A stretch of 64,000 bases of DNA, taken from NCBI GenBank assembly GCA_035221665.1, contig CM069163.1:16864001-16928000 (forward strand), given 5' to 3'. This DNA is from Okamejei kenojei (taxonomy: Eukaryota). Position numbers and translations under genes: made by a program. Shown here one piece after another: positions 1,295-64,000 of this stretch; the stretch's first letter is position 1, and each line of letters opens with the position of its first letter. A model generated the notes under the pieces. That model had not been told where the DNA came from, made no database searches, and saw only the letters and a list, made by a program, of their open reading frames with translations.

Positions 1295-1300
1295 AATAGA

Positions 1301-1417
1301 AATACTACAGATGCTGGAATCTTGAGCGAAACACGAAGTGGTGAAGAAGCTCAGTGGGTCAGGCAGCATCTGTGGAGGGAATGGACAGGCAACGTGTCAG
1401 ACAAGGACCCTTCTTCA
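1301..1417 (-). mobile_element. Penelope-like (PLE) terminal arm, single copy
   Basis: cagatgctggaatcttgagc...ctcagtgggtcaggcagcatctgtggagggaatggacagg...gacccttcttca matches the arms at 33428, 41042, 43033 and 63095. Confidence 0.75.
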
Positions 1418-2729
1418 AAATATTACCTATTGGTGTTCCAATAGTCCTGAACTCGAGCAATAGTTGTATTGCAATATTCACCTGTTTCAAGGACCTCAGT
1501 TTGTGAAAAGTTCCACATACAAGCAGCCTTCTGAATATAACCACATCTCACGATGATAAACTTCAGCAAATTGAATGTTATAACTTTACTCTTAGAATGT
1601 GCTCCCTTTAGCACAAAGCTGACGTGGGAAGGCACATTGTGTTGGAGGAACAAGCCCTGGCTGGGGTTTCCCGACGTCTAGTTATATTGTGGAAGTGGCT
1701 TTTGTATTTCACTGAACTTTAGCAGGATGACGATCAATGCCTCTCTCCACTGGAGAGGCTTCTGGCATTTGTTGACTATCAGCAGGTCCTCTGCAGTGAA
1801 TAGGATAAAATGGAGACTGCGGCTGAGTGAAGGCATCAGCAAAGGGCCATTCCCTCTGAATGTTTCACAGACCACACTTGAATCAGCAGGCAACTCTTTC
1901 TGAATGCCACCAGCACTGTTTTTTCAGTGTGAATTCTAAACTATTGTCACAGAAGATTAACCCTTTCATTGGAAAACCGGTCGGAACCAAAAACAGCCAA
2001 TTATCCCAAAACACAGAGAGCGTAATTACTCTAATGGATGAACCAGTGCAGGGGGAGGGGGAGGGATAGAGTATACAAGATGAGTGCTGATGGCTGATTT
2101 AAACCTGAAATGTCAGTGTTTACCGTGGATGAAGGAGGTTTTGGTTAGCTCACTCGCTCTCTATTTTGCTCCACCTGATTTACAATTTAACATTTATAAT
2201 ATTTATCCATTTTCCTCTTAAAAGGTAGTGTGTTCAGCTATTTTCTCTGTATATTATGTTTTTATCCTTGCTGCAGATTTTGATTGATCACAATTGCATT
2301 ATTACAACTGAAAGGGTGATCACCCTTTCCTCTACCTTTTCGAATGTTTTAATGTTCACAAAATATACCTCGCTAACTGTGCCCACAATGTGTGTCAAAG
2401 ATTCAAAATACAGATTATCTTTCAAATAATTCTGTTTAAATGAACAGTTAAAGTAAACTTAGATTATACTATGTCATAAAGAAAGTTAAATTGAAGAGCA
2501 GTAAAGGTAATTTGAGACATGACATGCGGTAGAGAGAGCATGCTTGGCATTATGTTCGATGCTAAGAGCATGAGGAGTTTGGACCAAGGGTTCCTCAAGC
2601 TCTCACCCAAGGATCACAACTGGATCAGGGTAACTGGAATGTTGCAACTGATTCAACCATTGCATCATGTGCGGGTCATCTGGATGGATGATCAGGAACT
2701 AGATGGATGAGGATTGGAGGTGGTGCTAC

Positions 2730-4808: not shown

Positions 4809-5809
4809 ATAGGATGGTCAATGGGAGATCTCTCTGAATTGCCATACAATCTCTTCCATAAATCTCTGTGACATTCAGCATTCACAGTGTTAACACTGCT
4901 GCATTTATTCTGTCCTTCGAGGAGGTCAGTGAGGTGCAGACGCTGAACTCCGGGTGTTGTTGTACTTGTCAATACAATCTGCAGAGAGTGGAGAGATGCG
5001 GCTGGTTCTGTGCAGCTAAGCTTGGCCATCAACAACATGGGCCACTGCCCATTACCAGCCTACTGTCCTTCCACAGCCCTCAGACTTCAGAAAGACATGA
5101 ACCTTTTCTACAACACTCCTTTCTGTAAAACTGAGGGCTTTATCATTAGTTCTGATAAAACATTTAAATGCCTTCTATTTCTGTACAATCATTACTGCTA
5201 AAAATAAGTGAATTTAAATGTTCAATTTTCAATTAACCACGTAAATAGAAATAAAATAAGAAAACAATATTTTGAAGATCATAGCCTTATTTCAGAAACA
5301 GGGAACTTTTTTTTAAAAGAGAGCACAATTTAGCTAAATAATTCTCCAAACTATTCACATTGTTTACACGCGCTTCATTTTAATCAGGTTCCCTTTTAAT
5401 CTCTTCATTTTTTTTCAATTAGGAAAAATGTTGATTGTTTTTATTTGACTTTGTGATGGGATATTAAACAAATAGTGGAATATATTCTCGTATGCTACAG
5501 CTTCAGATGCTTTGAGCGAACAATGCCTTTAATGTCTGATCTCAGTTAATGACCCTCGGCTGCGCTTATCGATGGAATTACTATGTCACTGCTTTGATGT
5601 AAACACTGCTAGAAATGAAAGGTGAACAGTTAATGCTGTATAAAGAAAATGATAATACTCCAGTTAGAGAGTCAGACGTTATTAATGATTTGCCCCTTCA
5701 GGTCTCCCTGTCCACGACCTCACCTATTGTTGAACTTAGCAGATGAGGATGTGGTATGGCAGAGAGAGAGAGATGATTTTACCAAATGCATAACCTCCTG
5801 AGGTGGGAT

Positions 5810-6650
5810 AGAGTCATACAGCATGGAAGCAGGCCCAACTTGTCCATGCCAACCAAGATGCCCCATCTATGCTAGTCCCATCTGCCCACGTGTTGCCCCT
5901 AGACCTCTAATCCTTTCTTATCCATGTACCTGTTAAAATTTATTTGAATTCTTATTATAGTACTTGCTTCAACTACTTCCTCTGGCAGCTCGTTCCATAC
6001 AGCTACCACCCTCTGTGTGAAAAGGTTGTCCCTCAGGTTCCTATTAAAACTTTCCCCTCTCACATTAACCTATGTCTTCTGGTTCTTGATTCTCCTATTC
6101 TGAGTAAAAGACTCTGTGCATTCATCGTATCAATTTCCCTGGTTTTATACACCTCTATAATATCATCCCCCAGCCTTCTGATCGCTAATGTATAAAATCT
6201 GAACCTGCCCAGCCTCTCCCTAGAGCTCACGTCCTCGAGTCCTGGCAACACACTTGTAAATCTTCACTGCGCTCTTTCCAGCTCAATGACATTGTTCCTA
6301 AAGCAGGTTGACCAATTCCTAAGACAATACTTCAAATGTGGTCTTGCTAATGTATTGTACAAATTTAACATAACATCCCAACTTCTACATTCACTACCCT
6401 GACCGATGAAGGCCAATGTACCAAAAGCCTTGTCTACCACCCTATCTAACTGTGCGACCACTTTCAGGAAACTATGTACTTGTATTCTTCGATCTTCTGC
6501 TCTGTGACACTCCCCAGACGCTGCCATTCCCTGTGAAAGTTCTACCCTGGTTTGACTTCCAAAAATGCAACACCTTGCACTTATCTTCATTAAACTCGGT
6601 GAGCAATTCCTCGGCCCACCTGCCTAGCTAATCATAATCTTGCTGTAATT
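5810..6650 (-). mobile_element. CR1-clade (HER1-like) LINE 3' fragment, decayed
   Basis: Minus-strand ORFs give LYNTLARPHLKYC..WS and RRLGDDIIEVYK..SRTRRHRL, the CR1 ORF2 C-terminus. The 3' tail lies near 5810. Confidence 0.9.
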
Positions 6651-11000: not shown

Positions 11001-11714
11001 GTAATGATTGTGGTTTCTTGCTGAAACAGTTAATTAAAGTTTAAAAGTTCCAAGAGGTGTTCCCAAAGTGGACTACAATTTTTTGAAGATTTACTCTTGA
11101 AGCACAAGCCCACAGCCCTTCACCAGTGCGGTGACCTGCAAAATCATTTTAACATCAATCTATAACTTCGGATGAGAGCTGTGCTAAAACTGAAATGATT
11201 AGTCAATAATTTCAGTTTTAGCACAAAGCTTTTAAGTGTGGCGGAGACCTGGAGTGTAGCAATCCCCCTCGGGAAGCAGCAAGTGTCTAGTCAGTGGAAT
11301 CGAAGGAAAGAAACTAGTGCAAAAACCAGAAACAATGTGGCTTTCAGTAGCTCGTAATATTGGAGTAAAGAGTTACTCAAAATTAGGTAGAGAGGGATGA
11401 TGTCATGGACTTTGAAAATATGAGGATGGATGATAAATATATTGTGACAGTTTTATTGAGAAATGCTGTATCCATTGGCAAGGCAATGTCATACTATTTC
11501 TGTTCGGTGTTAAGGATTTGCTAAAGTAGTTGAGCAGAATTGTGTGGCTGACTTGGTGTGAACATGGATCACATGTAGATCAGACCAGGCCGGAAGTGCT
11601 GAATGTCATAAATTAGGTATTTTGACAATCCAGTTGTTTCTTTGTTTCCAATAGCAATGTATGACATCTTTATTAAAATAACTCGGTGAGTTTAAATTCC
11701 TTGGTAGCTAAAAA

Positions 11715-12085
11715 AGGAAGCAGCTGGAGGTACTCAGCAAGTCAAGCAGCATCTGTGGAGGAAAATAGGCCGTCTACGTTTCAGGTCAGGACTCTTCATC
11801 TGATTGAAAGAATGATGGGGAAGTAACCGGTATAAAGAGGTACTGGTGGTGGGTGGGGGGGATGGAGGTGAAGAGGAGCTGATTGGCAGATAACTGTCAA
11901 GTGGGGGAGGGATGTGTAGACAGAGGCCAGGGGATGAGTAGAGAACAAAAGGAGGGAGATGCTGGAATGTTCTGAGAATGGAAGGTGAAGAATGGAACTG
12001 AATGAGGGGTTGTGGCAGATGGAAATAACAGGGGAGGGGTGAAGAATAAAGAAGGAAGGAAATCTAGTGGGGGTGTTGGAAAAAT
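11715..12085 (-). mobile_element. Penelope-like 3' terminal fragment (arm plus purine/pyrimidine-skewed UTR)
   Basis: Arm gctggaggtactcagcaagtcaagcagcatctgtggag...acgtttcaggtcaggactcttcatctga. The minus strand reads CAGATGAAGAGTCCTGACCTGAAACG, a degenerate hammerhead-like core. Confidence 0.65.
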
Positions 12086-14212: not shown

Positions 14213-14340
14213 TGGGTCTGTTGAACAGTCCCAAACCCGAGCCATTAACTGTTTCTCTCTCCACAGACGCTGCTTGAACTGCTAAGTGTTTCCAGCACCC
14301 ACTGCTTTTGTGTCAGATTTCTAGCATCTACATCTTTTTG
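14213..14340 (+). mobile_element. PLE terminal arm, degenerate
   Basis: ctctccacagacgctgcttgaactgctaagtgtttccagca...gatttctagcatct is the reverse complement of the common arm. Confidence 0.6.
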
Positions 14341-17809: not shown

Positions 17810-18080
17810 ATAGTCATACAGCATTTAAACAGGCCCTTCAGCCCAACTTTTCCATGCTTAGATTACCCATCTAAGCTTGTCCTATTTGCCTGCATTGGTT
17901 CATATTTGTCTAAACCTTTCCTATCCATGTACCTGTGCAAATGTCTATTAAATTGTGTTATTGTACCTGTCTCCACTACTTCCTTTGGCAGCTATTTCAA
18001 TATACCCACCAGCCTCTGTGTGTAAAAGCTGCCCCTCGGGTTCTTAATAAATCTTTCCCCTCTCACCTTAAACCTATATC
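17810..18080 (-). mobile_element. CR1/HER1 LINE 3' end
   Basis: Same 3' sequence as 5810-6070 (catagtcatacagca...aacaggcccttcagcccaac). Confidence 0.8.
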
Positions 18081-18889
18081 CTATGGAATTGGCAGAGTGA
18101 ACAGAATTCACTTTCATTGAAGGGAGGCTGAAGCTGCTGTCACAGTCACCAAGATCAGAGGAAACTCAAACCACAAACAGCGTAGGAGGATGTAGGCCTT
18201 ATGGTGTTCATTTGTTCTGTCTTCTCTGGTTTACATCATTTTATTTTGTGATGTTTCAACATATTGGTAGGAATTGTGGAATAAAATGCTGAGCTTTAGA
18301 ACGAGTGAGAATAGCTTGCAACAAAAGGAAGAAATAAAATGTGCTGTTCATATTAGGCCTCTCACAGCCTCAAAATGTTTTCACTTTACTTTCAGGAGGC
18401 TGCTTTTACTGTGTGTTCCCAGTGTTCGGCCATCACACTGTTTCTGAGTGTAATCACCAGTATATACAGTATTAATGATCTGAGGCTGGATATTGGGAGC
18501 TTGAAAGGGAATATGGAATGTACAAACTTAGTAAACACTGAGAAAGACAATACCAGACCTCAGGATGGCAAACTGGCAGAATAATGCAGACAACTATGAA
18601 GGATTTGAGCGGCAGACGTGAAGAGGCAATGTGCTTAAAAAATAAATATTATACATTTCTAGGTGCCACAAGAATATATAAACCTGGCAGCACACATGAA
18701 AGTAACCTTGAAGAAGGTGGGAAATATTAAGCAAGCTGCTGAGAGCACACAGGCGTGCTGGCATCATAAAGAGAAGCAAGAATGCAAATGGAGGACGTTT
18801 TCACCGGTTGGGGGCTCAGATGGAATATTATGCTCCATTTTGGCTAACACACCTTAAGAAAGGTCAAAGCCTTAGAGAATGGGCCTTTA

Positions 18890-19018
18890 GAGAAGGGTCT
18901 CGACACGAAACGTCGCCAATTCCTTCTCTCCAGCTGCCTCACCCGCGGAGGCAGCATCTATGGAGAGATTTTTGGTCAGCATTTCCAGCATTTTCGCCCA
19001 GCATTTTTTGTCTACCTT
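18890..19018 (+). mobile_element. PLE arm with internal inversion
   Basis: agaagggtctcgacacgaaacgtcgcc is a hammerhead-like stem II plus GAAAC GTC. Internal gaggcagcatctatggagag is an inverted arm piece. Confidence 0.7.
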
Positions 19019-19039
19019 TCTGAGAATGGCCCAGGTGTG

Positions 19040-20160
19040 TGCTATTGAGTAACATCAGTGGTTGGCAAGTTGCTGGAGAAGATTCAGAGGAACAGGATTT
19101 ATGTTCACTTAGAAAGGCGGGGTCATATTAGGAGCAGTAAGTTCAGTTTTGTGCAGAGGTGATCAATCTGATTGAGTTTTTGGGGAGTTATCCAAAGAGA
19201 TTGATGAAAACAGGACAGTAGCTATTCCAGAAGCTTAAGGCACAGTGTTCAGAGGCGTGTTGATCAGGTGAAGTCGAGTTTATTGTCACACGCACAAGTA
19301 CAGTAAGGTACAGTACAATGAAATTCATGCTTGCAGCAAGATCCTCGCATAGTGACTCCAACAACACAGTGACTGTATCCAATTTCAGATGGGAAATGTT
19401 TAATAAGTGGTGCTCGCAGGAATCCATGCAGAAAACTTTGCTGTTTGTAATCTTTGTATAAATGACTTAAATAAAAATCTATGGAGGTATGTAGACAAAA
19501 AAACAGGCGGAGTCGCAGATAATGAAGAAAGTTGTTTAACGTTGTTTTGTGAGGCATTGATCAGGTGGAGAGTTGGGCAGAGCAGTGGCAGATGGACTTT
19601 AGATAAGTACATCTAGAACAAATGACATGGACCTTAGGAGCATTGATGTACAGAGAGTCCTTGGGGTGCAAGTCCACAGCTCTCTGGAAGTGATGATACC
19701 GGTTTGTAGGGTTGTCAAAATTGTCTATGCTCGCTTATCCTCGTGGGCCGAGACATTGAGTATAAGACTTGGAACGTCATGTTAAACATGTACAAAACAT
19801 TGGTTAGATTGCACTTAGAGTATCCTGTACTGTTCCAGTAGCTGCATTGCAGGAAGGATGTTGTACCAATAGTGAGGGTGCAGAAGAGATTCACCATGAT
19901 GTTGCTAGAAAGGAGGGCTAAAGTTTTAAAAATGATTAGACAGGCTGGTTTTATTCTCACAGGAATGTATGAGGCTGAAGGATAATCTTATGCAGGATTA
20001 TAAAATTATGTGGGGCACGGATATGTTAGAGAGTCAGAGTCTTTTTCCCAGGATAGTGAACTCCAGAACTAGAGAGCATAGGTTTAAAATGAGGAGAGAG
20101 AAATTTGAAGAGTAACGAGGGGTAAGCTTTTCACTCAGAACATGGTGAATATTTGGAATT
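19040..20160 (+). mobile_element. Old CR1 LINE (RT to 3' region) with nested Rex1 tail at ~19265-19335
   Basis: Decayed RT motifs (..LCINDL..; atgtacaaaacattggttagattgcacttagagtat = MYKTLVRLHLEY; agaactagagagcataggtttaaa = RTREHRFK). Confidence 0.75.
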
Positions 20161-20382
20161 ATCAGCCAGAGCTGAGAGCTTCAAGTTCCGTGATGTTCAT
20201 ATTGCCAATAATCTGTTGTGGACCAACCACATTAATGCGATGGTCAGGAAAGCACACCAACACCTCTCCTTCCTCAGGAGTCAGAAGAAATTTGGCATAT
20301 CTCCAATGACTCGTACAAACTTCTACAGATGCACCATAGAAAACATACTGTTGAGTTGCATCACAGCTTGGTTTGGGAACAG
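20160..20382 (+). mobile_element. Rex1/Babar LINE fragment
   Basis: ESFKFRDVHIANNLLWTNHINAMVRKAHQHLSFLR..KKFG..TNFYRCTIENILLSCITAWFGN. Confidence 0.88.
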
Positions 20383-22299: not shown

Positions 22300-22770
22300 T
22301 AAGTTCATAAATCATTGGAGCAGAATTAGGCCATTTGTCTTATTGAGTCTACTCTGCTGATCATGGCTGATCAATCCTTCCCTCTGAGCCCCATTCTCCT
22401 GCCTTCTTCGCATAACCTTTGACACCCTTACTAATTAAGAACCTGTCAATCTCTGCTTTACAAATGCCCAGTGACCATACAGCTTGGAAACAGACCCTTT
22501 GGCCCAACTTAACATGCCAATTAAGATGCTGTATCTAAGCTAGTCCCATTTACTCGCATTTGGCCCATATTCATCTAATTATTTCCTATCCATGTACATG
22601 TCCAAGTATTTTTTTAAACATATAGTATCTGCCTCAACTACCTCCTCTGGCAGCTCATTTAATGTACCCTCTCACCTTAAACATATATGTCCTCTTGTTT
22701 AATTCCCCTTCCCTGAGTAAAAGACTCTGTGTATTCATCCCCTACCTATTCCCCTCATTATTTTAATCAG
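22300..22770 (-). mobile_element. Two adjacent CR1 3' ends of different subfamilies
   Basis: 22300-22472 resembles 59190-59345; 22476-22770 resembles 5815-6150. Confidence 0.75.
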
Positions 22771-24374
22771 AATCATGAGGGGATTCGTGGAGAGGATGTC
22801 CATCCAGAGTGGGAAGGTTTAGTACTCGCTGTACAAGTGATGATGGACACATGTTCTCTCATCATATTTCAGAATGTGAACTTGAAGAGTTACCGGCAGC
22901 ATTGGTAGAAACTGAGTGCTGGAAGGCAGGATTGAGCTTGTATAGTCACAAACTCAATGTGCCAAATGGCCTCCTTCTGTCCTGCATATTGACTATAACG
23001 CGATGATACTCAACAGCTGGAAAACTACCTGGTCCTGAGCCTAATAGTTGTTCCTGGACAGCTCTCTAGAGTGGGCCGCCCAAACTCTGCAGGGTCCCAT
23101 TCCTTTCATGCTAACCGGAGTGGGTAGATATTGCCCTGACCTCTCCTTTCTATCACCGCAGGACAAAGCTGCTGGATATTATGTGGCGGGTGAGTTCCTT
23201 ACACTTGTGCGGGTGTGTAGAATCCATATCCACATCTGATCGATGTTCCTCGACAGTTATCCTGCTAAAGCGGATGCTCTGAGATTGGGGCGCTGAGGCT
23301 GCAGCTGAATGGCCATTTGCTCACCTCTGAAGGGATCCTTCCCTTCTCTACAACTCCAGTGCCCAGTCAGTCAGCATCTCCACCAGCACTGTGTAAGCTT
23401 CTCTTCAACCGATGAGCATGTGAGCTCTATTTCAAACAGAAACACACTTTATTTTACAGAAAACTAAAATAAAAAAACATTACATTTGGGAACTAGGCAC
23501 AGCAGACTAATTGAGTTCTCTTGAACAATGTAACCAGACTTGAATCAGTGACTTCACTACCAGTCTCGCAGTGTTGTCTTAGTGATGACACTAGCCTCAT
23601 TGCATTTTGTCCATCATAAAAAAGATCTGTTATTGAATGGAAACCAACACATAGTCACAACAGGCACAATTACAGCCTATTGCTCTTCCTCTACACTTCC
23701 AGGTCGATGATCAGTGGCTGGCAATTGATTCCTGGGACCTGAGCCCATTCCTTTAGTGATTCCATGTGAAGAGCAGAGAATTACTGGGGATCCACTGTTT
23801 CAGAACAGGCTGCAATCACTTATAAAGATTTCCTTTATAAGTGGTTCACCGGCATGAATCATCCAATTCCTTCAATGTGTGATGAACTTCAACCTTTGCT
23901 CAAGGCCAGAATGTAGTGCTGCAATAAAATTTGATTTGCCAGACAAATATATTTTGATGTGTATTGTTTAACCTTGGAGGCACTACAAGCCCTAATCCTA
24001 GAGACAGTCTCGGACTCAATGAATACAAACCTCTCTGTCACCGTGTGTTAAACGAGTAAAATATTACCTCGTTACACCACACATTGTATTCCATTGAATA
24101 TGATGTTCCTCTATACAGCTGGTTCATATCAAACATTAAAGAAAAGATGAGAACATTGACTTGAACTGAGGTCATTGAAACAGAATATGTTGGAAACACA
24201 AGGCCTGTCAGACGGTGTCAGTGGAATGAGAAACCGCATTAAGGTTTTGGGTGAAAGATCTTTCATAAGATCCTTCAACTGGGATAGAGAAAACTGGTTC
24301 AGTTTTAAGTTGCAGAGAAGGTAGGGAAGAGATGAGGAGGACAGAAGGAAAGGCTGAGGACAAAAGTGGCCTCC

Positions 24375-25988: not shown

Positions 25989-26051
25989 TGGTGGATAATA
26001 TCCCCACTCAAGCAATCTTCACCATGGTCTTCACTCACTCCGTTTACAAAA

Positions 26052-26240
26052 TCAAAATACTGCAGGTGCTGGAAGAAAAACAGAAAATGCCACAAATACT
26101 CAAGTGGGGTCAGGCCACACCAGCAGAGAGAAACAAAGTCAGTGTTTGGATCAATGATCAAAGGTCTTCAATTGAAACAACACTCTTTCACTTTTTACAG
26201 GTGCTGCCATATCCTCTGAGTATTCCCAATACTTACTGTT
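26052..26240. mobile_element. Degenerate palindromic PLE-arm element
   Basis: ctgcaggtgctggaa...aaatactcaagtggggtcagg... followed by the inverted ...caggtgctgcc...ctgagtattccca. Confidence 0.5.
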
Positions 26241-26423
26241 CCTCTGATCGTCCAAATTCCATTTATTCGTACTGAACCATCTGTTCTACCCGCCCTGGAG
26301 GAAGAAAGACCTGAGGCAAGGAATAATCACAATGCCTTGACCTTAAGTTGGTAGCTGGTGGAGTTGCACTACCCTACGTCAGTGTGACATCTCAGGGAGC
26401 TGCTGACTCTGATTTCAGTGTAA

Positions 26424-27204: not shown

Positions 27205-27329
27205 TAAGGCACCTCTCATCCAAACCAACAGCATTGACAACAGAAACTGTTGTCCCAGACTCCACAACAATTTAGGTTGCCAGTGATGATTCTTTTCCTC
27301 AGCATTTCTTTAATCTATTTTTTATCAGC

Positions 27330-28280
27330 ATTTCTTTAATCTATTTTTTAATCTATATATTGATGATCTGTCTAAACAATTGAAAGCCTGTAACACTGGG
27401 TGCGTGATTGGTAATATTTTAGTGAACCATATTATGTATGCAGATGATCTTGTGGTCTTTAGTCCATCTAGCGCTGGTCTCCAGCAGCTCCTTACTGCAT
27501 GTTCCGTGTATGGTTTGGAACATGACATTAAATATAATGCTAGTAAGAGTGCTGTTATGGTCTTTGGAAGCAAAGAGGATAAAAGCCTAAAATATCCGGA
27601 TTTTAAATTGTCTGACAACAATCTTAGTGTCTGTAATAAGATAAAATATCTAGGGCATATTATTACAGAACAAATGACAGATGATGAGGATATTTATAGA
27701 CAACGATGCATGCTGTATATACAGGCGAATATCCTATAAATTTGGTGCGTGTGCAGATGTGGTGAAGATGTCGCTATTTAGAGCATACTGCACACCCCTC
27801 CACACTGCGCACCTGTGGTCGAATTATTTAAAGACAAGTATGCAGAGACTAAAGGTTGCATATAACAATGCCATGAGAACACTGCTAAGGCAACCAAGAT
27901 GGTGTAGTGCCAGTAATATGTTTGTGGCTGCAGGAGTCAGTACTTTAGAAGCTATCCTAAGACACCACATGTATAAATTCATTTGCAGGATAAATGACTC
28001 TAAAAATGTGCTTATTGTGGCCTTGACAAATATAAGGGTTAGCACTACACGCTACGAATCCCAGTTGTGGAGACACTGGTATCGTTGTCTCGTTGTACGA
28101 CATTGATCATTTTTTACTCTGGATTTTTAACTTAAGTATTGTGGGTTTTTTTTTAAATATATAAATTATGATGCTTTTATGTGATTTACTATGATTTTAT
28201 ATATATTTATGATATTTGATATGCAATGCATTTTTTAATGTAATGTTGCCCCTTGTCTGGACCTTGAGTCCGTAATAAAG

Positions 28281-28435: not shown

Positions 28436-29070
28436 TCCGTAACAAGAGGATTTCAGTATAGGTGTAGAGAGGTTCTTCTGCAGCTGTATAGGGCTCTGGT
28501 GAGACCACATCTGGAGTATTGCGTACAGTTTTGGTCTCCTAATTTGAGGAAGGACATCCTTGTGATTGAGGCAGTGCAGCGTAGGTTCACAAGATTGATC
28601 CCTGGGATGGCGGGACTGTCATATGAGGAAAGATTGAAAAGACTAGGCTTGTATTCACTGGAGTTTAGAAGAATGAGGGGGGATCTTATAGAAACATATA
28701 CAATTATAAAAGGACTGGACAAGCTAGACGCAGGAAAAATGTTCCCAATGTTGGGCAAGTCCAGAACCAGGGGCCACAGTCTTAGAATAAAGGGGAGGCC
28801 ATTTAAGACTGAGGTGAGAAAAAACGTTTTCACCCAGAGACTTGTGAATTTGTGGAATTCCCTGCCACAGAAGGCAGTGGAGGCCAAAACATTGGATGGA
28901 TTTAAGAGAGAGTTATATAGAGCTCTAGGGGCTAGTGGAATCAAGGGATATGGGGAGAAGGCAGGCACGGGTTATTGATTGGGGACGATCAGCCATGATC
29001 ACAATGGATGGCGGTGCCGGCTCGAAGGGCTGAATGGCCTCCTCCTGCACCTATTTTCTATGTTTCTATG
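28436..29070 (+). mobile_element. Young CR1 LINE, 5'-truncated, uninterrupted ORF2 C-terminus
   Basis: VLLQLYRALVRPHLEYCVQFWSPNLRKDI...RRMRGDLIETY...SRTRGHSLRIKG...VNLWNSLP, stop at 28978. Tail ctattttctatgtttctatg. Confidence 0.96.
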
Positions 29071-33427: not shown

Positions 33428-33584
33428 GAGACACAGGGAACACAGGGAAATCTTGAGTAGAACATAGTGCTGGAGGAACTCAGTGGGTCAGGCAGCATCT
33501 GTGGTGGGAATGGACAGACAACATTTCAGGTCGAGTCAGTGTGAAGAAGTGTCCGACCAAAATGTCATCTGTCCATTCCCTCCA
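33428..33584. mobile_element. Palindromic PLE-arm element (asymmetric)
   Basis: tggtgggaatggacagacaacattt (33502-33526) pairs with aaatgtcatctgtccattccctcca (33560-33584). Confidence 0.75.
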
Positions 33585-34524
33585 GTTTCTACTGCACCCC
33601 AATGTTATACAGCGACACACCCATTCCCAGCAGTACTATGCTCATGGTTTCATATAAAATCAAGTACAGAGTGCTCTGTTCAAAGGAATACAACTTAGCG
33701 GGAAAATAATTTTAAGAATTACCAGTCAAAATAAATAAACAAGAAAATGAGATTTATTTACATTTTATAACGATTTATAACAGCTGTATTTGCTACATAC
33801 AAAAGCAAGTGTATCACATTTACAGAATATTAGAGTAAACCAAGGCCCAGTGATTAAAAGTGACATCATCCCCAATAAACATCATGTGACAAGAACTTTG
33901 TCACTCGCCTATCTAGTGTCTGCTGTCTTCTAAAAATATACTGAATTACATTTAGCAGGTTAGCTAAGGAAGTGAATTAATAACATTTTACCAACAGCTT
34001 GCTCTAGATTTGGGAGAAAATTAGAAGGGTGATTTTCAGATTTTTTTTAAATTGCTGATTAAATAACCGGTTTTACCATCAATATCTCAAAGGAAGTGAA
34101 GCAAACGGTCCTAATCTTCATCACTTTTAGGCAATTACTGTTCTGACTGCCATATTTTTACATTTTTTAAATAAATTATGAGGCCTTACCATTGTCTTGA
34201 GGAGTTATTGAACTTTTCAACGTAAGTGAACAATGTTGTCAGTTGAAACAAGTAACATTAGTAATGCCCAGAATTAATAATGGTATTGACTGAAGGCATT
34301 GTATCGGAGTGCTACAGTGTGAACACGTCACATACTCTCCTTTGAGCATCGTGGTAAGATTATACATGTCACCCATTCTCCAATCTTCTTCAGTCATGTG
34401 CTCCCACTCGTGTACACTCTGACAATGACGAATGGAAAGGAGGGAAGACATCTAGTCCATGGTTTGATTCCAGTTTTGCGTACAAGCATTGAAAGCTACA
34501 CTTCTATGGCTTTTGTAGGAAAAC

Positions 34525-35945: not shown

Positions 35946-36042
35946 CTGAATAAAGTTAATTATGGGGGGAATAAGAAAAAAGTTTGGTTTTGCTAAAATT
36001 ACTCAGCTCCAGACCTCATTAAAACCTCAGTCCAAATGGGAA

Positions 36043-36170
36043 TTGAAGAAGGGTCTCAACGCAAAATGTCACCTATTCCTTCGTTCCATAGATGCTGCCT
36101 CACCCGCTGAGTTCCTCCAGCATTTTTGTCAACCTTTGATTTTTCCAGCATCTGCAGTTCTTTCTTAAAC
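36043..36170 (+). mobile_element. PLE terminal arm
   Basis: ttgaagaagggtctcaacgcaaaatgtcacctattcc...gatgctgcctcacccgctgagttcctccagca...ccagcatctgcagttc. Confidence 0.8.
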
Positions 36171-36229
36171 ATTAAATAATTCCCAACAGAGGTGAGAGTG
36201 AGAGCTAACCTCGAATATTGCAATGTTGT

Positions 36230-36600: not shown

Positions 36601-39600
36601 ATGACGAATAAAGATGGCAGTCACTTTAGCTCTCCCACATTCTATTAGAGGGGTGGGATCCATGATGAAAATGGGGACGCTTGAGGATGAGAATGAATGA
36701 GCTTGGAAGGAGATGCAACAGGAGAGTTGTGGAGTCCAATTGACTGAGTAGTAACAAGGAGGAGCCAACTGTCCAGATGACAGAAGGAACTACAAGAACA
36801 TTTTAAAAACAGGGGCAATGGGAAGACAAATACCTGTGGAGACTGATTGCAGGAGAATGAATGTTCACCTTCCCAAATCAAAACAACATTATTCAGTACT
36901 TTCAACACTCTAAACCTCAGCAGTCAATAAACCACATCAAGCCAAGAAACATGCAGATCAGTTCTTGAGCATTATGCTATTCCAATCCGTAAATAAAACT
37001 TTGCCTAAAAGCAAGCTGGAAATGTACTTATCAAACAGCAAAAAGAGCAATCTATTTCGCTCGGTCCGAATTCACAATAGCTGTGCTGTCAGTTTATTGT
37101 CAACATTTCAGTCACCTTGAAGGAATGGGGTGATGGTTATTTTCTCTCAGATGTTAGAGCAAACAATCAGGAAATTTCCACCTGTTGACTCCAAATATGT
37201 ACCTTTACTCTTTAAAGTGTATGCATCCTCTGCACACACTCCCACAGGGATCTTGACCAGGAAGGCCTCTGACCTGAAACGTTAGCACAAACTCTCTTTC
37301 CATAAATACTGCTTGACCTGCTGACCATTTGATGTATTTTCGGATTTTATTGTCCCTAATTTCACCCAAGGTACCCAGGAACGAAAGGCTCTTAATTCCC
37401 TCAGCTCTAAATATACCTTCAGTTCCTCAAAGTCAAACTCTTTGTGACTCAGCATGGGACTCAGAACAATCGCTTGGGATGCAATGCCCCAAATGGTTTC
37501 TTGCAAGTGTATCTAGTGTCACATTAGTTTTGTGTTCCGGAATATATTTGAAATTATCTGTTTGTTCCGTCGGTCAATTTGGATTTACAATTGCATACAG
37601 CAGGCTTGTTGGCAGAGGTGGAAGTAGGGATTCAAATAACAAAATATCCAGATGAGCACCTGAATTGCCAAGGCATTGGCAGATTAGGGCCAAATGCTGG
37701 TAAATGGGATTAGTACAGATAACACTTGATGGTCAGCATGGGTTTAGTGGGTTGAAGGGCCTATTTCTCTGCTGTAGGACTCAATGACTGAGTCCAAACT
37801 TGCCGACCTTTCCTGATCTCATTTTCATTGCCGGAGAGATGCAGACTGCTGAACGGGAGGTAAGGTCAATTGCCGGCACTCTGCTCCTAAACAATTGTCA
37901 TTGGACTTTATTTCATATGCAATCAATGAATGTGTGTATGCATGGGCCCACTGTTAAAATCCATAGTGGTCTATGGCTTTTACATCAAGCCATACTCAGC
38001 ATGTTTCACAGAGAGGGGGTTGTTTTCATTGAAAATATTCTGAGCCTCAGAAGACCTATTTTAAAATCAAATCTGAAAGCAAGTTCCCAGTGTTAAGCCT
38101 CGATCGCCAGGTGCGTGCTGTGGCTCAACGCTTTTTTGTGAACAAAATTTTAAAAGATTGTTAGATTGACCACAATTTTACTTGCAAAGCAAAGCACTTC
38201 ATCAGGAATTTTAGTAGCCGTCATCATCTTAATTATAAACGGAAGTGACAGATGAAGCTATAGTTGAGAAGATAAGTTGATTAAAGCTCCCAGAATCATA
38301 ATCAAGGGCGTGTAAAGTTCAATGCAAATTGTCAAGACTTCTGGTATTTAGGAATTTTGACTCTGATCATTTAAACTGTGGTCAACGATAAGGGATTCTC
38401 ATCCTCGACAAATCAGATCACTGGGAACCAGTTAATCTCCCATTTGCCTGGTTGGCTGATTCTTGCTGAGTTATAAACTATTCAGTCCCAACACCCCAAA
38501 CTGATCTTAGTGCAGAAACCCAAAGGGGTTTGATTAGGGTTGCACCCAATTCTGAGTTCAGCTGGGACAACATCTCGGCTTCAGTTTCTAGTCCACCTCT
38601 TGTGAAGGTGGGAATGGTATTTGGTTCCCTCTAGTGACTTTGATTATTTAATGCAGGGTTCCAGAATTTGCTGATTAGGCGTTAATTTTTCCAGACTTTT
38701 GTTTATCAGTGAAGAATTAATTCAAAATCTGAAATTATGCATCCTCTTAGACAGCTGTAGATGCCACTTGTTGCTGTATTTACATTAATATAAATACATT
38801 TGTGTTGATGGTATTGTTTCTCCTGCAGAGGGAACCTACCAATAATACATGAGACTTATGTTGTGATACAGCAGGGAAACTAAACCTTTGGCCCACTGAG
38901 TCCAAACTGACCAGCAATTTTCCAATTACATTACTCTTACATTAATCCCATTTTTATTCTCCCCACATTTTCATCAATTCAGCCCAGATTGTACCCCCTC
39001 ACATACACAACAGCCAGGGTACAGTCCTCTACCCCATTGCAGACATTGGACGCTTCATGTAATTGATGTGTTACAATGCTGAGAACCATATTCTGCACAC
39101 TGTATATTCCCCATTGCTCTATGTATTGTACTTGAGTTTGACGAATGTATTGATGTGTAGTATTATCTGATTTGTTTAGATAGCTTGCAAAACAACGTTT
39201 TTCACGTTGTAAACATGATAATATTCAATTTAAACCTAAACCCAAAAGGTAGTATTTCCAACAGTCTGGCATTTTCTGTATACTGCATTGGAGAGTTAGT
39301 CCAGTCTTTTGAGTTGAGTTTTTGAGTTGGACTGCAATGTGCAGTCAAGAGGTGAGAATGCCACCCTCCGAACAACAACTGACACCAGTAATCTAGCAGC
39401 ATAACCTAGGAGAATGCTGGTTCATTTTCTAGAAACTCAACACAAAGTCACTCTTCCCTGAATCAGATCCCAAGATCATGCTTGTGGCTCTCTCATTTCA
39501 ATTTCCCCATCTAATTTAATCGCAAGGTGACATGGACTACAGTGGCTGCATTGGCGATGGTCAATGGATGATTGAAATGTGCTGAGCCTAGATAGGAATG

Positions 39601-41041: not shown

Positions 41042-41242
41042 GGAGACACAACGAAATGCAGATTCTGGAAGCTCGAGTAGAACACAAAATGCTGGAGAAA
41101 CTCAGCAAGTCATACAGCATCCCTGGAGGACATGGATAGGTGACACTTCACAATTCTGATTCGGAAGAAGGTTCCCAACCTGAAAGGTCACCTATCCATG
41201 TCTTCCAAAGATGCTGCCAGACCCGCTGCAGTACTTTGTGTA
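41042..41242. mobile_element. Palindromic PLE-arm element
   Basis: agacatggataggtgac pairs with gtcacctatccatgtct; centre tcggaagaaggttcccaacctgaaaggtc. Confidence 0.8.
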
Positions 41243-43032
41243 CAATCCGATTTACTCCTACCAGGCCAGAAGGAGCTTGAGAACGATAAGGAATTTGATG
41301 AGAATGACATGCGCCATGGATGCCCCAGGTTCTCGATCCGCTGGAACTCCCTGTCAACTGGTTGGCCTCTGAACCAAATGATGTTGTGCCAGCCTAGAGT
41401 GGAATATCGTTCATTAAAGCTACCTGGCTCTCAAGGGTTGTGTTAATCAGGCCTTGCCATCAAAGTGAATGTAGCAACATTGATAGATGCATCGTGATTT
41501 AATTCTGTGATAGTTAAAATGTCGGGTGGCATAAAAATGCCATTACGTGTAATGTCTGACTGAGTACTTGGAGTTCCGTGATGTTTATGATCATCGAGTG
41601 TTTTCCTGTGTATGAGCTGCTGCTAGTGAAAGCCACCCTTGATTCTAAACAACCATTGTTAATTTCCCAAGCTCAGTTCACGTTCCGCCTTTATACAAGA
41701 AATGACACTTTCCCATCAGCCTGGCCAAGAACTGAATGCCCCCGATGTGAAATGACCTTTTTTTAATCTGTTGTTTTTATATTCCAGTGGTCTCCAAGGG
41801 CGTTAACCTTATGGCCCAGTCAATGAGAAATAGAGCCTGCCGTTCTGAGCATCAGAAGATTGATGGGAGTTGGGCCTCCTGATTACGTACTCACATTCCC
41901 TTTGAGATGTAATGAAGAAAGGTAGACAGCAGTCAGCTGGAAAAGATGCAGATAAAAAAATTATCAGATCTGTAATTATAGCCAAACAAGGTTTAAAAAC
42001 GTTGCCTTCTATTTTTACCAATAACAATTACTTTGATTCACCGGTTAGTAACCCTGTCCTCTTGAAGCAAGACTGTAGAACAAGCACATTCAACTGTTAT
42101 TGCTGAGCCCTGCTGCAGCGTTTGGACCCGTCCCAAGTACACTACAGCATGGTGCAATATATTGGAAATTACACAATGTCCTGCACGTTTTGGTTATGTA
42201 TCTTAACAGAAAGGTTTTATGGCTCATTTCTTTTGTGAAGAAGACATATATATAAATCCGATTCAAGTTGTTGTGAAGGTTGAATTTAGTGGCTGCTGCA
42301 AAGGTCAGCTGGTAAATCTCTTTTATTTTTCATGAGGCAGCCTGATCAAGAGTGGGAGATCCTTTCTGTTGTTCATTTAAATACTATACACATTTCTAAA
42401 ATTGTGCTGTACACAATCTGCAACTATTCTGGTTTCACTGCCTCTTCTCTATAGTTTCCCTCAACTGGATAATCATCATCTAATTATTCTCGTATGCATC
42501 CCTGTGTCACCAAGTCAGCTTCAGAAACCGACTCCGTCACCTCAACATCTCCTGGTCATTCCACATTTACCTCCCACCGTTTTCTGATTTACACACTGCA
42601 TCTTGGAACCCTAGTCATTCAGTCGTGTGGAGAATATCATTGGCAGGTAGCACTCTGTCATGAAGGAGTGAGAAATGTCTCACCCACCAAAAAGGATGTC
42701 CTTTTTCTGCAGTGGCATAAGAAGTGCTCTTGAATTATGTAAAGACAGGGCTTTTCTTTGAGACATATTTTTATCTGGAATGTCGATGACTCGCCAGGCT
42801 ATCAAGTTGTCCAATGTTGTGGTGTTTGAGATGCCAGGCAGATTCCCCTTCCCTGCCGCTGTTCTGAGGGCTCATGCAGCATTTACAGGTCAGCTGTTGG
42901 TCTGTCATTTCAGGCTGCTGGGCCTTTCTTGATATGTTTTATTCAGAAAAGTTTACAGTCTAAACAGAGCAGTGTTTTGTTTCAGTGTTCACATTTTACT
43001 GCTGGTGCCTGAAGCTGCCATCCATGTCATAG

Positions 43033-43330
43033 CATGAACACAAAGTGCTAGAGTAACTCAGTGGATCTGACATCATCTATGGAGGACATGGATAGGTGAC
43101 GTTTCATGTCGGGACCCTTCCTCAGACTCAGTCTAAAAAAGGGTCTCGACCCAAAACGTCGCCTATCCATTTCCTCCAGAGATGGCGCCTGACCCACTGA
43201 GTTACTCCAGCACTTTGTGTTCTATGCAAGATTGCAACTTTTGCATTAACAACAGATAATCCTCTGACATTTTCGCCACCTCAAACGGGATCCCACCACT
43301 GGCCACATCTTCTGCAGTTCCTTGTGTCTC
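43033..43330. mobile_element. Palindromic PLE-arm element (two 93-bp head-to-head arms) with a PLE ORF piece in its tail
   Basis: 43036-43128 is an imperfect reverse complement of 43130-43222. 43250-43312 translates QQIIL*HFRHLKRDPTTGHIF, a Penelope-like RT-to-GIY-YIG linker. Confidence 0.88.
43095..43128 (-). ncRNA. Minimal hammerhead-ribozyme-like motif (PLE type), probably decayed
   Basis: Minus strand AGU CUGAGGA A GGGUC CC GACAU GAAA CGUC ACC: CUGANGA box, short stem II, GAAA box and GUC site. Stem II is damaged in this copy. Confidence 0.55.
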
Positions 43331-44244
43331 CATGTCACAGGATGAGGTGATAAGAGAGGAGGGAGTGGGCATAGAGCAGGAATGATGGTATGTGTTTCAT
43401 CTAACGAAGCGAGAGCAGTGTACAAAAACAATTACATTGTATTAATAAATAGAGAATTGCACTGTGATTTTTCTGACCTTAACGTGTGAAGGCAGTTCCT
43501 GAATCTGATTCCAGTGATCAAGATAGCAGAGTGGAACCTCTAAAAAACAGGCATCCACAATAATATTTATCTGAAGGATTTAGCAGTCAACACAGATGAA
43601 AGAATTACAGCAATAAGCAAGGGCCTAAAAAAATGCACTGCAAAATATTCTTGAATGATAGTTCAGTCGAGGATAAATTAAACACCTAACATACTGGGAT
43701 GTTGAAACTGAGAATGAGTATCTGCTCCGCAAATGAAGTGTGAGAAGTAGCTGCCATCAGAGTTATTGCTGAATTCTACACGAGATCAAATGGTGCGTTA
43801 AAACGTGAGTGTGCTGTCTGTCATCCAGTCACTGAATGCTGGAACAATGAAGTGCAGAACAAGTGTTGGCAGGAGGGAAGGAATGAGAAGCGAACATCCC
43901 TGTGACTGCTCGTGAGCTGTGGAGTAAGGTTCAAAAAGGCCCGATGGATTCAGTTTAAAGTTTCTTGCAGAGTTAGCTAGGGAAAGAGAAAGTGTGTCAC
44001 TCATTGACCCAAACTGTCAACAGATTAGAGAGTCTGAGATTCCTTACTGCAGTGGGCTTGGGATAGCCTATCTTGAATGTGAAGCAGCCGATTGTGAAAA
44101 TGTCAGCATCTATAGCTGGTGCAACATTCCCAGTAGTGAGACAATTTTCTCTTGCCAGCAGACCACATTGACACTGGACTGCCAAAGCAAATGCTCCACT
44201 CTGACCTTTATCAGGAGAAAGTACTCGGCAGACAGAGGATAAGA

Positions 44245-50419: not shown

Positions 50420-50826
50420 GAGATCAGATAGATTGGGCAGTTTAGGACTTTATTCTGAAAAGCACAGGAGGCTGAGGGTTGAAATAGCTGTGTAAAAAAT
50501 CATGAGGGTAATAGATAGAGTGAATCCAGAGTATAAGAATCAAGAACCAGAGTTAACAGGTTTAAGGTGAGAAGGGAAAAATTTACTAGGAACCTGAGAG
50601 GCAATGTTTTCTCCCATGAGGGTGGTAGGTGCAAGTAGTTAAGGTAGGTCCAATAAAAGATTTAAAATACATTTGGACAGGTATATGGATAGAAAAGGTT
50701 TAGATGGATATACTGTAGGCCAAATGCAGGTAAATGGGAATAGCTTAGATGGGGCAGCTTGGTCGGTATCTACGAGTTGGGCCAGGGGCCTGTTTCCATG
50801 CTGTATGACTGTATGAGTCTATGACC
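50420..50826 (+). mobile_element. CR1/HER1 LINE 3' end
   Basis: aggaggctgaggg...tcaagaaccagagttaacaggtttaaggtgaga; tail gcctgtttccatgctgtatgactgtatgagtctatgac. Confidence 0.85.
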
Positions 50827-55250: not shown

Positions 55251-55634
55251 ACATTATGGAAACCTGACTATTGAGGCCAGATTGAAATCATGGCATGACT
55301 TTAAATTACAAGGCGATCTCACGTGTGGAATTAGAGCACATACAACTGAGCTAGGTATAATTTTTGGCACATTAATTCAGATTGTATTATCTTTATTGGA
55401 AAACCTTGCGTTTGGAACATCCTCCCAGTGAGTGTTGTCCTTTAAGAGTTAATCATATTATTAATTATTTTTGCTGTTTAACCCCAAATATAAATTGCAA
55501 TGGTTAAAAGTTTTAAATCAACTGAGAAGTAGGGTAAAATTAAAATATCACTTGGTTCTTCATTAATAAAGAAAGTAGCTTTTTATGTGTACATGATATG
55601 GCACAGACATCCAGTAAATTATTCATATCTTATA

Positions 55635-55990
55635 GAGCTGTAGAAGATCATGAGGGGAATAGATAGGGTGAATACACAGAGTCTTTTTCCCAGGGTAGGG
55701 GAATCAAGAACTTGAGGGCTTAAGTGTATGGTTGGAGGGGAATGATTTGATCAGAACCTGAGGGGCAACTTTTTCCACACAGAGAATGTATGGAATACCG
55801 AACAAGTTGCCGGAGGAAGTAGTTGAGACGGGTGCAATTACAACATTTAAAAGAGACTTGGACAGGTACATGGAAAGGAAAGTTTGAGGGGAATATGGGC
55901 CAAACATGGGCAAATCTTATTAGAGTAAATGGGGCACCTTCATCTGCATGGATGAATTGTGCTGAAGATGTAGTTTCTTTGCTGTCTGAC
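55635..55990 (+). mobile_element. CR1/HER1 LINE 3' end
   Basis: Colinear with 50500-50810. Confidence 0.85.
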
Positions 55991-56087
55991 AATCACTATA
56001 TCGGCACATAATCCCTCAATTCAGCATATCACTTTATTATAAAATGCAATTTAGATATTTCACATATCTAAATTATTCTCCATGGAT

Positions 56088-57813: not shown

Positions 57814-58077
57814 CGAGATGCGAAGGGAGATCACTGTCCTCATCAGAGATGCTCAGGCATCTGATGTAGCAAATAAATGAGCAGCTTGTCTCAAGTCAAT
57901 GCACTTCATACCAAGTTTCTAATGAATAGAAAGTGCACAGTGCAACCATCTCCACTGCCCCCTCCATCCCTTCCCTGTACTTAACTTCCTCCTGTCAGTT
58001 TAACAAAGGCAAAACCGACAGCCATGATTTGAAGCAAAATAGGAGAACTCAGCTGGTCAGGCGGCATCTGTGGAGGC

Positions 58078-58270
58078 CATAGAGTCATTAAGCACTGAAT
58101 TAGGCCCTTCGGCCCAACCCATCGATGCTGACCAATATGCCCCATCTAAACTAGTCCCCTTTACCCATGATTGGCCAAGATTACTCTAAACCTTTCTCAT
58201 CGATGAACCTGTCCAAGTGTTGGTTACATGTTGTTATTGTACCTGCCCAGCTACCTCTGTATGCTGCCAA
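58078..58270 (-). mobile_element. CR1/HER1 3' end abutting a truncated PLE arm (58030-58077)
   Basis: catagagtc...aggcccttcggcccaac; the arm gaactcagctggtcaggcggcatctgtggagg lies immediately to the left. Confidence 0.75.
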
Positions 58271-59184: not shown

Positions 59185-59604
59185 AGAATTTCATAAGTTA
59201 TAGAATTAGGCCATTCGGCCCATCGAGTCTACTCCGCCATTCAATCATGGCTGATCTCTGCCTCCAAATCCCATTTTCCTGTTTTCTCCCCATAACCCTT
59301 GACACCCGTTCTAATCAAGAATTTGTCTATCTCTGCTTTAAAAATATCCACGGACGTGGCCTCCACAGCCCTCTGTGGCAATGAGTTCCACAGATTAACT
59401 ACCCTCTGACTAAAGAAGTTCCTCCTCACCTCCTTTCTAAAAGAGCGCCCTTTAATTCTGAGATTATGACCTCTGGTCCTAGATTCTCCCACCAGTGGAA
59501 ACATCCTTTCCATATCCACTCTATCTATGCCTTTCATTATTCTATAAGTTTCAATGAGGTCCCCCCTCAACCTTCTAGCCTCCAGTGAGTAGAGGCCCAG
59601 TGCT
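59185..59604 (-). mobile_element. Young CR1 LINE 3' fragment
   Basis: ORF 59241-59570 RGDLIETYRIMKGIDRVD...SRTRGHNLRIKG...RVVNLWNSLPQRAVEA. Confidence 0.95.
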
Positions 59605-59680
59605 GAAAAGTCATTTGTCCATTACCTCCACAGATGCTGCTTGGCCCGCTGAGTTCCTCCAGCACTTAGTGTTTTGCTCT
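59605..59680 (+). mobile_element. PLE terminal arm
   Basis: gtcatttgtccattacctccacagatgctgcttggcccgctgagttcctccagca. Confidence 0.75.
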
Positions 59681-60071
59681 TTAATAGCTTAAGCCAGTTA
59701 GCGAGTATAGAATCTCTACTCTGCCACCAAAACAGACCGGACTTAGATGCCAAAGAACAATGAAGTAATGCTCTGAGTTTTATAAACACAACTGGAATGG
59801 GTTCAGGCAAGAGGCTGATGTACATCAGACTCAAGGTGAGGGTGACGTCCACCATTCTCCAAAAATGAGTGGTGAGAAATCCCCGCTTTTAAATTATACT
59901 TAATTTAATCTCTGAAAGCTGTGAGGCAATTTGAAATATAATTACTGTTAATTGTGGCCATCAATTTCTCTAGAACTCAAAATTGTTTCTTGGAATGATC
60001 ATGACACAACAGTGGCTCACTGACGACTGGTGAGTCTGATCCCCTGTGATTACCTTCCATTGACATTGCCT

Positions 60072-61230: not shown

Positions 61231-61563
61231 CATAGAAACATAGAAAATAGGTGCAGGAGGGGCCATTCGGCCCTTCGAGCCAGCACCGCCATTCATTGTG
61301 ATCATGGCTGATCGTCCCCTATCAATAACCCGTGCCTGCCTTCTCCCCATATCCCTTGATTCCACTAGCCCCTAGAGCTCTATCTAACTCTCTCTTAAAT
61401 CCATCCAGTGACTTGGCCTCCACTGCCCTCTGTGGCAGGGAATTCCGTAAATTCACAACTCTCTGGGTGAAAACGGTTTTTCTCACCTCAGTCTTAAATT
61501 ACCTCCCCTTTATTCTAAGATTGTGGCCCCTGGTTCTGGACTCGCCCCACATTGGGAACATTT
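61231..61563 (-). mobile_element. Young CR1 3' end, same subfamily as 28436-29070
   Basis: Near-identical reverse complement of 28738-29070, including the CATAGAAACATAGAAAATAGG tail. Confidence 0.95.
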
Positions 61564-62592: not shown

Positions 62593-62987
62593 AGGGCCTG
62601 CCCCACTTTACGAGATAATTCACGAATTCTCCAGAGTTATTCATGAATTCCCCCGAGTTTTCCCCTTGATTCAAACTCGCAGAATGTTCGTAACGGGTCC
62701 GTAGGAGGCCGTAGGAGTCCGTAGATATATCGTAGCGGCTTGCTATGCCAGCCATAGGTACTCGAGGCATCAGGTAAGTCGGGACGTTTTCTCCAGCCTG
62801 ATAAAAATGTCCACGAGTAAAAAAATAGTCGGGAGGATGCCCCGAGTACCTACGGCTGGTTTACGATATATCTACGGACTCCTATGGACCTGTTACGAAC
62901 ATTCTGCGAGTTTGAATCAAGGGGAAAACGCGGGAGAATTTGTGAATAACTCGGGAGAATTTGTGAATTATCTCGTAAAGTGGCCCT
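62593..62987. mobile_element. PIF/Harbinger-type fold-back MITE, 395 bp
   Basis: TAA-AGGGCCTGCCCCACTTTACGAGATAATTCAC...GTGAATTATCTCGTAAAGTGGCCCT-TAA; about 170-bp imperfect inverted arms; 6-bp deletion in the right TIR. Confidence 0.9.
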
Positions 62988-63094: not shown

Positions 63095-63220
63095 GATACA
63101 CGAGACTACAGATGCTGTAATCTTTAGCAAAATAAAAAGAGCAGCTGAAGGAACTCATGGTTCAGGCAGCATCTGTGGAGGGAAAGGGATGTCAATGTTT
63201 TGAGTCAAAATCCTTTATCT
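63095..63220 (-). mobile_element. PLE terminal arm
   Basis: ctacagatgctgtaatc...ggaactcatggttcaggcagcatctgtggagggaaaggga. Confidence 0.75.
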
Positions 63221-63224
63221 AGAC

Positions 63225-63807: not shown

Positions 63808-63859
63808 ATCTAGACCATTTAACTGGACCACTTCCAACACCTCTTTTTCCTATCCAAAT

Positions 63860-64000
63860 TTTCTGCCTCAGAGGGTGGTGGAGGCCGGATTAAGAGAGAG
63901 CTAGATAGGGCTCTTAAAGATAGCAGAGTCAGGGTATGTGGGGAGGTGGCAGGAACGGGGTACTGACTGTGGATGATCAGCCATGATCACATTGAATGGT
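63860..64000 (+). mobile_element. Young CR1 3' end with internal deletion (runs off the window)
   Basis: tctgcctcagagggtggtggaggcc...aagagagagctagatagggctct...gatcagccatgatcacattgaatgg; similar to 28860-29010. Confidence 0.9.

Follow-up and report, generated by a model that had tools for sequence, protein, structure and literature searches.

The locus described here lies in a window of 64,000 nucleotides, by which we mean the whole stretch of DNA analyzed, and consists of two arms that meet head to head. If the segment 43032-43227 is compared with its own reverse complement, 162 of the 197 aligned positions match (82%, E 5e-53). The left arm (43032..43128, minus strand) is an inverted copy of a pLTR end without tail and starts 3 nt upstream of position C3 of a hammerhead motif; the right arm (43128..43227, plus strand) is a direct copy and starts 5 nt upstream of C3. 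At the junction (43128..43129) T43128 can be assigned to either arm and C43129 is the natural base of the right arm, so that the microhomology amounts to 1 nt, the single shared base T43128. Complementary pairs flank 43129 at 77 of 93 positions per side. The arm with its inverted copy and 1-nt centre, which the initial annotation of this DNA had claimed at 43033, is therefore real. The RNA of the palindrome is predicted to fold into a single hairpin (-130.3 kcal/mol, z -18.5), and none of 200 shuffled sequences was as stable.

The unit as a whole is asymmetric. The complete insert (43030-43328) carries a tail of about 30 bp on one arm only, and is flanked by a 9-bp direct repeat, TCCATGTCA, at 43021..43029 and 43329..43337 (both plus strand). 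This repeat is a likely target-site duplication. It is equalled by 0.2-0.4% of random window pairs (p 0.002-0.004), and the first three to four letters of its left copy also resemble the tail end of other arm copies. An empty site was not seen in the public contigs, and the other three palindromes of the window show no significant direct flank repeat, leaving the focal one as one of four. The tail (43228..43328, plus strand) is absent from the left arm and is split by a foreign insert of 77 bp (43234..43310, plus strand). As family contigs jump from 43214-43233 to 43311-43313, most copies lack 43234-43310 and the tail proper measures about 30 bp.

The 77-bp insert is itself a high-copy repeat, with a summed depth of 1.7e5-1.1e6 across 43258-43299 in the three public DNA runs. 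It translates as a short peptide of 21 residues, and a stop codon at 43265 is absent from about 80% of the depth in public contigs. We presume that this peptide resembles coding sequence of a Penelope-like element (PLE). Searches with so short a query are weak tests: no match was obtained in Pfam, among 1.84 billion representatives or in the 5.8-billion set, where one candidate came up, and the PDB gave one chance match (E 0.83). These four protein searches, made with the 21-residue peptide only, thus returned no PLE protein link for the arm or the insert.

All of the three additional palindromes and ten solo arms listed initially were recovered by profiles built from the window copies. Ten arms were found by a profile untrained on them (E 5e-17 to 0.0036), the left arm of the palindrome at 26052 only by a profile trained on it; the best E of the two profiles in the reversed window was 0.074 and 3.7. 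The second palindrome (41042..41251) belongs to the focal subfamily and its tail arm begins near the GAAA box. In the third (33428..33600), which represents a different subfamily, the tail arm begins within stem II. The fourth (26046..26244) is old and divergent, and both of its arms begin near the base of stem II. The tail lies on the left in these three, and is one-sided and about 30 bp long in all four palindromes.

Solo arms with a tail are found at 1300..1420 (minus strand, starting at the CUGA box), 14213..14335 (plus strand, old subfamily, found by the window profile), 36043..36172 (plus strand, fourth subfamily, starting at the CUGA box) and 63095..63222 (minus strand, old subfamily, beginning just upstream of the CUGA box). 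A divergent arm at 37255..37346 (plus strand) was found by the window profile, and a very divergent one at 24175..24270 (minus strand) by a profile untrained on it (E 4.7e-6); judged by eye, the latter seems to continue upstream. Self-comparison and profile together gave two arm fragments that adjoin another repeat (58030..58082, minus strand; 59594..59681, plus strand). The arm at 11712..12060 (minus strand) continues upstream for about 250 bp as pyrimidine-rich sequence that ends in CAATCAG, with the upstream limit set by eye, and is read as a longer pLTR.

The solo arm at 18888..19020 (plus strand) has an 8-bp direct flank repeat (p 0.01, one of 18 tests) and contains an inversion near its middle. 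An opposite-strand joint at the equivalent region (43080 to 43187) occurs in 9, 8 and 18 contigs of the three runs, which suggests a recurrent rearrangement. The solo arm at 36043 is flanked by an 8-bp inverted repeat (36037-36044 and 36178-36185; p 0.006, one of 18 tests). An inverted flank duplication considered at the 1301 arm did not hold (p 0.33).

The abundance of the family was assessed in public runs by matching a 601-base stretch around the focal copy at 80% likeness. Contigs of three organisms match this stretch (69,968 in run X1, 48,763 in X13 and 62,530 in X10), and the depth rises from 7-105 in the flanks to a summed 1e6-1e7 in the arms. Other loci of the arm pattern were absent from viral contigs, metagenome contigs and prokaryote genomes (0 in each), all of these collections being prokaryotic or viral. 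Behind 43128 the contigs show a loose end with the purine-rich continuation GATTGTAGGGG (1004 contigs in X1, 550 in X13, 893 in X10; agreement about 0.39). Among the matches listed this is the only centre-side loose end common to all three DNA runs, and it corresponds to the longer repeat. The upstream extension of the arm at 11712..12060 agrees with this loose-end consensus. Because loose ends behind 43128 occur in all three DNA runs and in the 11715 copy, the arm is the end of a longer repeat. In organisms D and F, contigs that begin in the unique flank enter the left arm with an identity of about 96%, and the focal insertion is for this reason shared and old.

Family reads are also present in polyA RNA of organism D, where 11,662 of 7,335,232 records of run X22 match. 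They occur in both orientations, and the flanks of the focal locus have zero coverage; about 6% of the run was covered and reads were pooled over the family. A search for A-to-I editing, proposed initially as a check on the copies, gave no excess: A>G plus T>C changes account for 63 of 240 variable places in the RNA and for 35 of 151 in the X10 contigs of the same organism, a comparison in which pooling hides editing at single loci.

Each arm contains a minimal hammerhead motif. In the left arm (43098..43125, minus strand) the boxes are intact and stem II is broken by one mismatch and one G-U at its base. The motif in the right arm (43133..43160, plus strand, predicted cut after 43160) has three core mismatches, with G5, G8 and G12 changed to A at 43135, 43138 and 43153. 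These G-to-A changes (43135-43153) all lie in TC context on the opposite strand and are too few to test. A strict descriptor found no perfect minimal hammerhead in the 64-kb window, in line with the claim that every copy is mutated. The suggested comparison with Rfam hammerhead models gave no match up to E 5, and six weak matches of other kinds appeared.

The family as a whole gives a clearer picture of the motif. In the X1 contigs the majority letter is G at 43135 (95% of depth), 43138 (94%) and 43153 (61%), and the mutated stem II positions of the left arm (43106-43107) carry C at 41% and 87% of depth. The majority motif is composed of CUGAAGA, an extra A, a stem II of 5 bp, GAAA, CG and UC. 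PLE minimal hammerheads are described in PMC4209133 as having in common the CUGANGA box, an extra base, the basal G-C of stem II, the GAAA box, a palindromic CG for helix III and a UH site. The family majority has the core boxes, the extra base, the basal G-C, the palindromic 15.2/16.2 positions and the UH site, and no single window copy is complete. Judged from its letters, the majority restores an intact minimal hammerhead core as described for PLE repeats, a predicted self-cleaving motif. The initial reading, which saw in the arm the terminal repeat of a Penelope-like element bearing a minimal hammerhead, is supported by the majority core Gs and the insertion architecture, not by PLE coding sequence.

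Compared with the PLE hammerheads, stem II of the focal family has 5 bp and a 2-nt loop, and stem I of the focal subfamily, inspected by eye, has only two contiguous pairs in place of a helix I of 4-5 bp. A stem I of 2 bp is reported for D. virilis in PMC4209133. Older copies show GAC or AAC behind the cut site (by eye). Opposite-strand pairs of motifs at distances of 100-700 bp are described in the same paper, together with numerous single motifs that stem from truncated PLEs, whereas just 7 nt separate the two focal motifs, and these pair with one another.

Each strand of the palindrome holds one core, and its antisense arm is transcribed first. In transcripts of the focal mutated copy that end at the cut site, the predicted pairing probability of stem II is 0.0 on both strands. 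As isolated mutated arms also score low (0.07 and 0.0), this test mixes decay with sequestration. We predict that pairing with its own antisense arm keeps the ribozyme locked inside the hairpin. A pile-up of read ends at the family was not seen in the polyA RNA, which is a weak test of cleavage. Minimal hammerheads are described as needing a same-sense partner (PMC4209133) or the help of protein, and for the anole element the ribozyme is reported to be dispensable for insertion in vitro (PMC11167929).

Counted from C3 as +1 and read by eye, 14 of 18 arms start between about -9 and +20, two run on upstream (11715, 24175) and two adjoin other repeats (58030, 59605). A start could be read for 16 arms, and in no case does it coincide (by eye) with the ribozyme cut site (+29); for this reason cleavage does not define the 5' end of the unit. 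The region in which the starts concentrate, the hammerhead 5' edge, adjoins a splice-acceptor-like motif: the sense-strand consensus of the loose ends has a pyrimidine tract followed by TACAATCAG immediately before the core. This combination looks like a splice acceptor and is put forward as a candidate lead only; spliced reads at the candidate acceptor were not seen. In the Penelope element of D. virilis the end of the intron coincides with the helix I 5' edge (PMC4209133). The pyrimidine tract with its terminal CAG beside the cluster points to a testable explanation of the truncation, which could be either the 5' end of the RNA or a splice acceptor.

The layout of the focal unit is that of known insertions. 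According to Arkhipova et al. 2013 (PMC3846280) and Craig et al. 2021 (PMC8557442), in EN+ PLE insertions, too, an inverted, 5'-truncated copy stands head to head with the direct one, the junction is palindromic, about 30 bp of tail is present on one side only and the flanks carry a direct repeat of 8-10 bp. In contrast to these, the window units have no ORF between the repeats, their arms are cut to about 100 bp, and the starts are clustered at the hammerhead 5' edge. The focal unit is a minimal form of this PLE insertion layout, of which both the architecture and the ribozyme motif have already been described. Among titles and the starts of abstracts, in searches that did not cover most subscription journals or Repbase, no literature was found on stub palindromes of this kind in cartilaginous fish, the probable host group as judged from the repeat content, on two-ended PLE priming or on a clustering of arm starts at the hammerhead 5' edge. 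The assignment to PLEs is likely, and is based on architecture with no PLE coding sequence tied to the arm.

The animal non-LTR retrozymes (Cervera and de la Pena 2020, PMC7229834; Li et al. 2026, bioRxiv 10.64898/2026.07.22.740005) resemble the focal family in being small, non-coding, hammerhead-bearing and related to PLE pLTRs, and the latter authors report retrozymes in one chondrichthyan. As described in these sources and in PMC6765202, however, retrozymes are head-to-tail tandem arrays which give same-sense ribozymes and circular RNA, whereas the focal units are head to head with one core per strand. Self-comparison of the window found no tandem head-to-tail arms; all pairs are head to head. 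The initial annotation had suggested a retrozyme-like unit that encodes a core on both strands and folds into a long hairpin RNA. One core per strand and the predicted hairpin fold stand; the retrozyme-like mobile unit is not supported, given the head-to-head order, the differing centres, the three subfamilies and the stem II pairing of 0.0 on both strands. A retrozyme is thus probably not what lies here.

The centres deserve a closer description. The clear 1-nt centre at 43033 was not found in the other three palindromes. The two arms start at -3/-5 at 43033, at -5/+13 at 33428, at about -9 (or -3)/+20 at 41042 and at about +6 to +8 for both arms at 26052 (C3 = +1, by eye); for 41042, an alternative reading gives the focal centre in the same polarity. 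The four centres of the window thus differ or cannot be matched with certainty. The letters behind the cut site that distinguish the subfamilies are, by eye, the same in the two arms of any one palindrome, and the four palindromes represent three subfamilies. Since arms match within a locus and three subfamilies are found among four palindromes, the palindromes have formed repeatedly. A tree of 15 arms (18890, 24175 and 58030 left out) has low support, 64 for the 26052 pair and 44 for the focal pair. The tail arm of 41042 is 80% identical to each focal arm and shows no tail-to-tail affinity with 43033.

In the public contigs, seven pieces that span the centre are listed among the longest 24 of 178,640, with net lengths of 0, 0, 0, -6, -6, -7 and -7 relative to the focal copy. 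The three zero-gap pieces have mismatch counts of 20, 24 and 23 compared to mirror-image counts of 23, 25 and 26, and two of them could be the focal locus in flipped orientation. The spanning pieces show several recurring spacings rather than unique junctions, which fits a junction hot spot. No centre gap reached the 2% listing threshold in the public contigs.

We place the palindrome with good confidence in the class of PLE insertion by-products. For the route itself, we give about an even chance to the proposal that the back-to-back arms were made in place by a Penelope-like insertion with two-ended priming. Both strands of the target would be nicked by the protein of the element, and the 3' ends would serve as primers, one for a cDNA from an inner start site, leaving no tail, and the other for a cDNA from an outer start site, giving the tail. 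Both cDNAs would stop near the hammerhead 5' edge and be joined head to head via 0-1 nt or a short microhomology, while a template jump during synthesis could account for the 77-bp insert. Such a product, its ribozyme predicted to be locked in the hairpin, would be inactive from the outset and would decay neutrally.

Several published observations bear on this route. Penelope insertions are described with an inverted pLTR, target-site duplications of 8-10 bp, a 31-bp tail on one inverted pLTR and frequent head-to-head palindromic junctions, the published one-sided tails measuring 30-40 bp (PMC3846280; PMC8557442). In the anole, the PLE protein, a predicted dimer, cuts both strands and extends them, and it initiates reverse transcription at two positions, one at each border of the tail, some 111-118 nt beyond the beginning of stem II (PMC11167929). 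After removal of the insert, the focal tail ends about 117 nt past stem II, by arithmetic from the contig skips. The element in question, Poseidon PAc of Anolis carolinensis (Frangieh et al. 2024, PMC11167929), has a similar distance from stem II to the tail end and a tail between two start sites of reverse transcription, a likeness of layout. Palindromic products like the focal unit are not described in the accessible part of that report. Frangieh et al. also find the same start site between the strands (PMC11167929), and the tail asymmetry is for this reason not forced by the anole data.

The main rival to two-ended priming, which we regard as possible though unlikely, is fold-back: the inverted arm would arise by self-priming on the antisense template or on nascent cDNA, and the hairpin would then be integrated. 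It was proposed for head-to-head junction palindromes of rotifer Penelope elements (PMC3846280), and the sequence TCAG-T-CTGA, found at the hammerhead 5' edge, comes close to being self-complementary. The -6 class of spanning pieces has the length expected from annealing there, its gap positions not being displayed. Fold-back predicts symmetric centres, yet those at 33428 (-5/+13) and 41042 (-9/+20) are asymmetric, and by itself it leaves the one-sided tail unexplained. The origin of inverted and tailed PLE ends is called undefined in PMC8557442 and PMC11167929. The abundant stub insertions provide a large natural set of junctions, for which two-ended and fold-back priming predict different outcomes.

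That the palindrome is a non-autonomous retroelement in its own right, with masters of about 200-230 bp whose hairpin transcripts the PLE protein would insert again in full, without rolling-circle processing, appears improbable to us. The outer ends are alike among the four palindromes, PLE proteins can act in trans on pLTR-bounded sequence (PMC3846280), and the family reads in polyA RNA would agree with such masters; but these reads are pooled over the family, with the focal flanks uncovered. Three of the seven listed spanning pieces keep the focal spacing and the -6 and -7 classes recur in two organisms, in a listing that favours the zero class. Against this reading, the four copies in the window comprise at least three subfamilies and as many as four centres, the two palindromes of the same subfamily (43033, 41042) show no arm-polarity signal between them, and no centre gap reached the listing threshold. 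We likewise doubt that some of the palindromes form a non-autonomous, hairpin-shaped Penelope derivative that propagates itself, has its centre fixed at the hammerhead 5' edge and is copied whole by the parent protein while its ribozyme is silenced by the antisense arm. If true, such a fixed-centre hairpin derivative would be a MITE-like form of retroelement seeding thousands of double-stranded RNA hairpins.

Least probable, and rather remote in our estimate, is a post-insertion collapse in which recombination, or a deletion driven by the hairpin, removed the interior of a longer PLE that had an inverted pLTR and left the outer ends: longer copies exist (11715, contig loose ends), long palindromes are unstable and the asymmetric centres at 33428 and 41042 could be deletions, yet the near-perfect 1-nt focal centre is unlike the leftover of a stabilising deletion, solo arms begin in the same narrow zone, and the D and F contigs, whose centres are not displayed, already enter the left arm from the unique flank.

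Hairpins of this kind may be mistaken for microRNA precursors or MITEs, and a weak Rfam mir-641 match does lie inside the third palindrome (33502-33584). Several further repeats occur in the window. A larger imperfect palindrome at 62603-62983 (73% over 415 aligned columns) is unrelated to the Penelope arm, and we take it to resemble a non-autonomous DNA transposon. A reverse transcriptase fragment at 27314-27736 (plus strand, Pfam RVT_1, E 1.8e-11) is followed by a second open frame at 27678-28106, and the region 27314-28106 is likely a broken LINE. Copies of one repeat without Pfam match lie at 28642-29070, 59208-59601, 61231-61563 and 63857-63999, of which 28737-29070 and 61231-61563 are 94% identical; presumably this family is the 3' end of a CR1-type LINE. 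A dispersed family of about 300 bp with 70-75% identity, probably a SINE, is found at 5808-6163, 17810-18086, 19985-20171, 22476-22764, 50527-50815, 55627-55993 and 58078-58257, the last copy adjoining the arm at 58030. In addition, the window contains a GC-rich minisatellite with open frames on both strands (3943-4332) and a hairpin-like inverted repeat of 46 bp (11180-11225, 87%).
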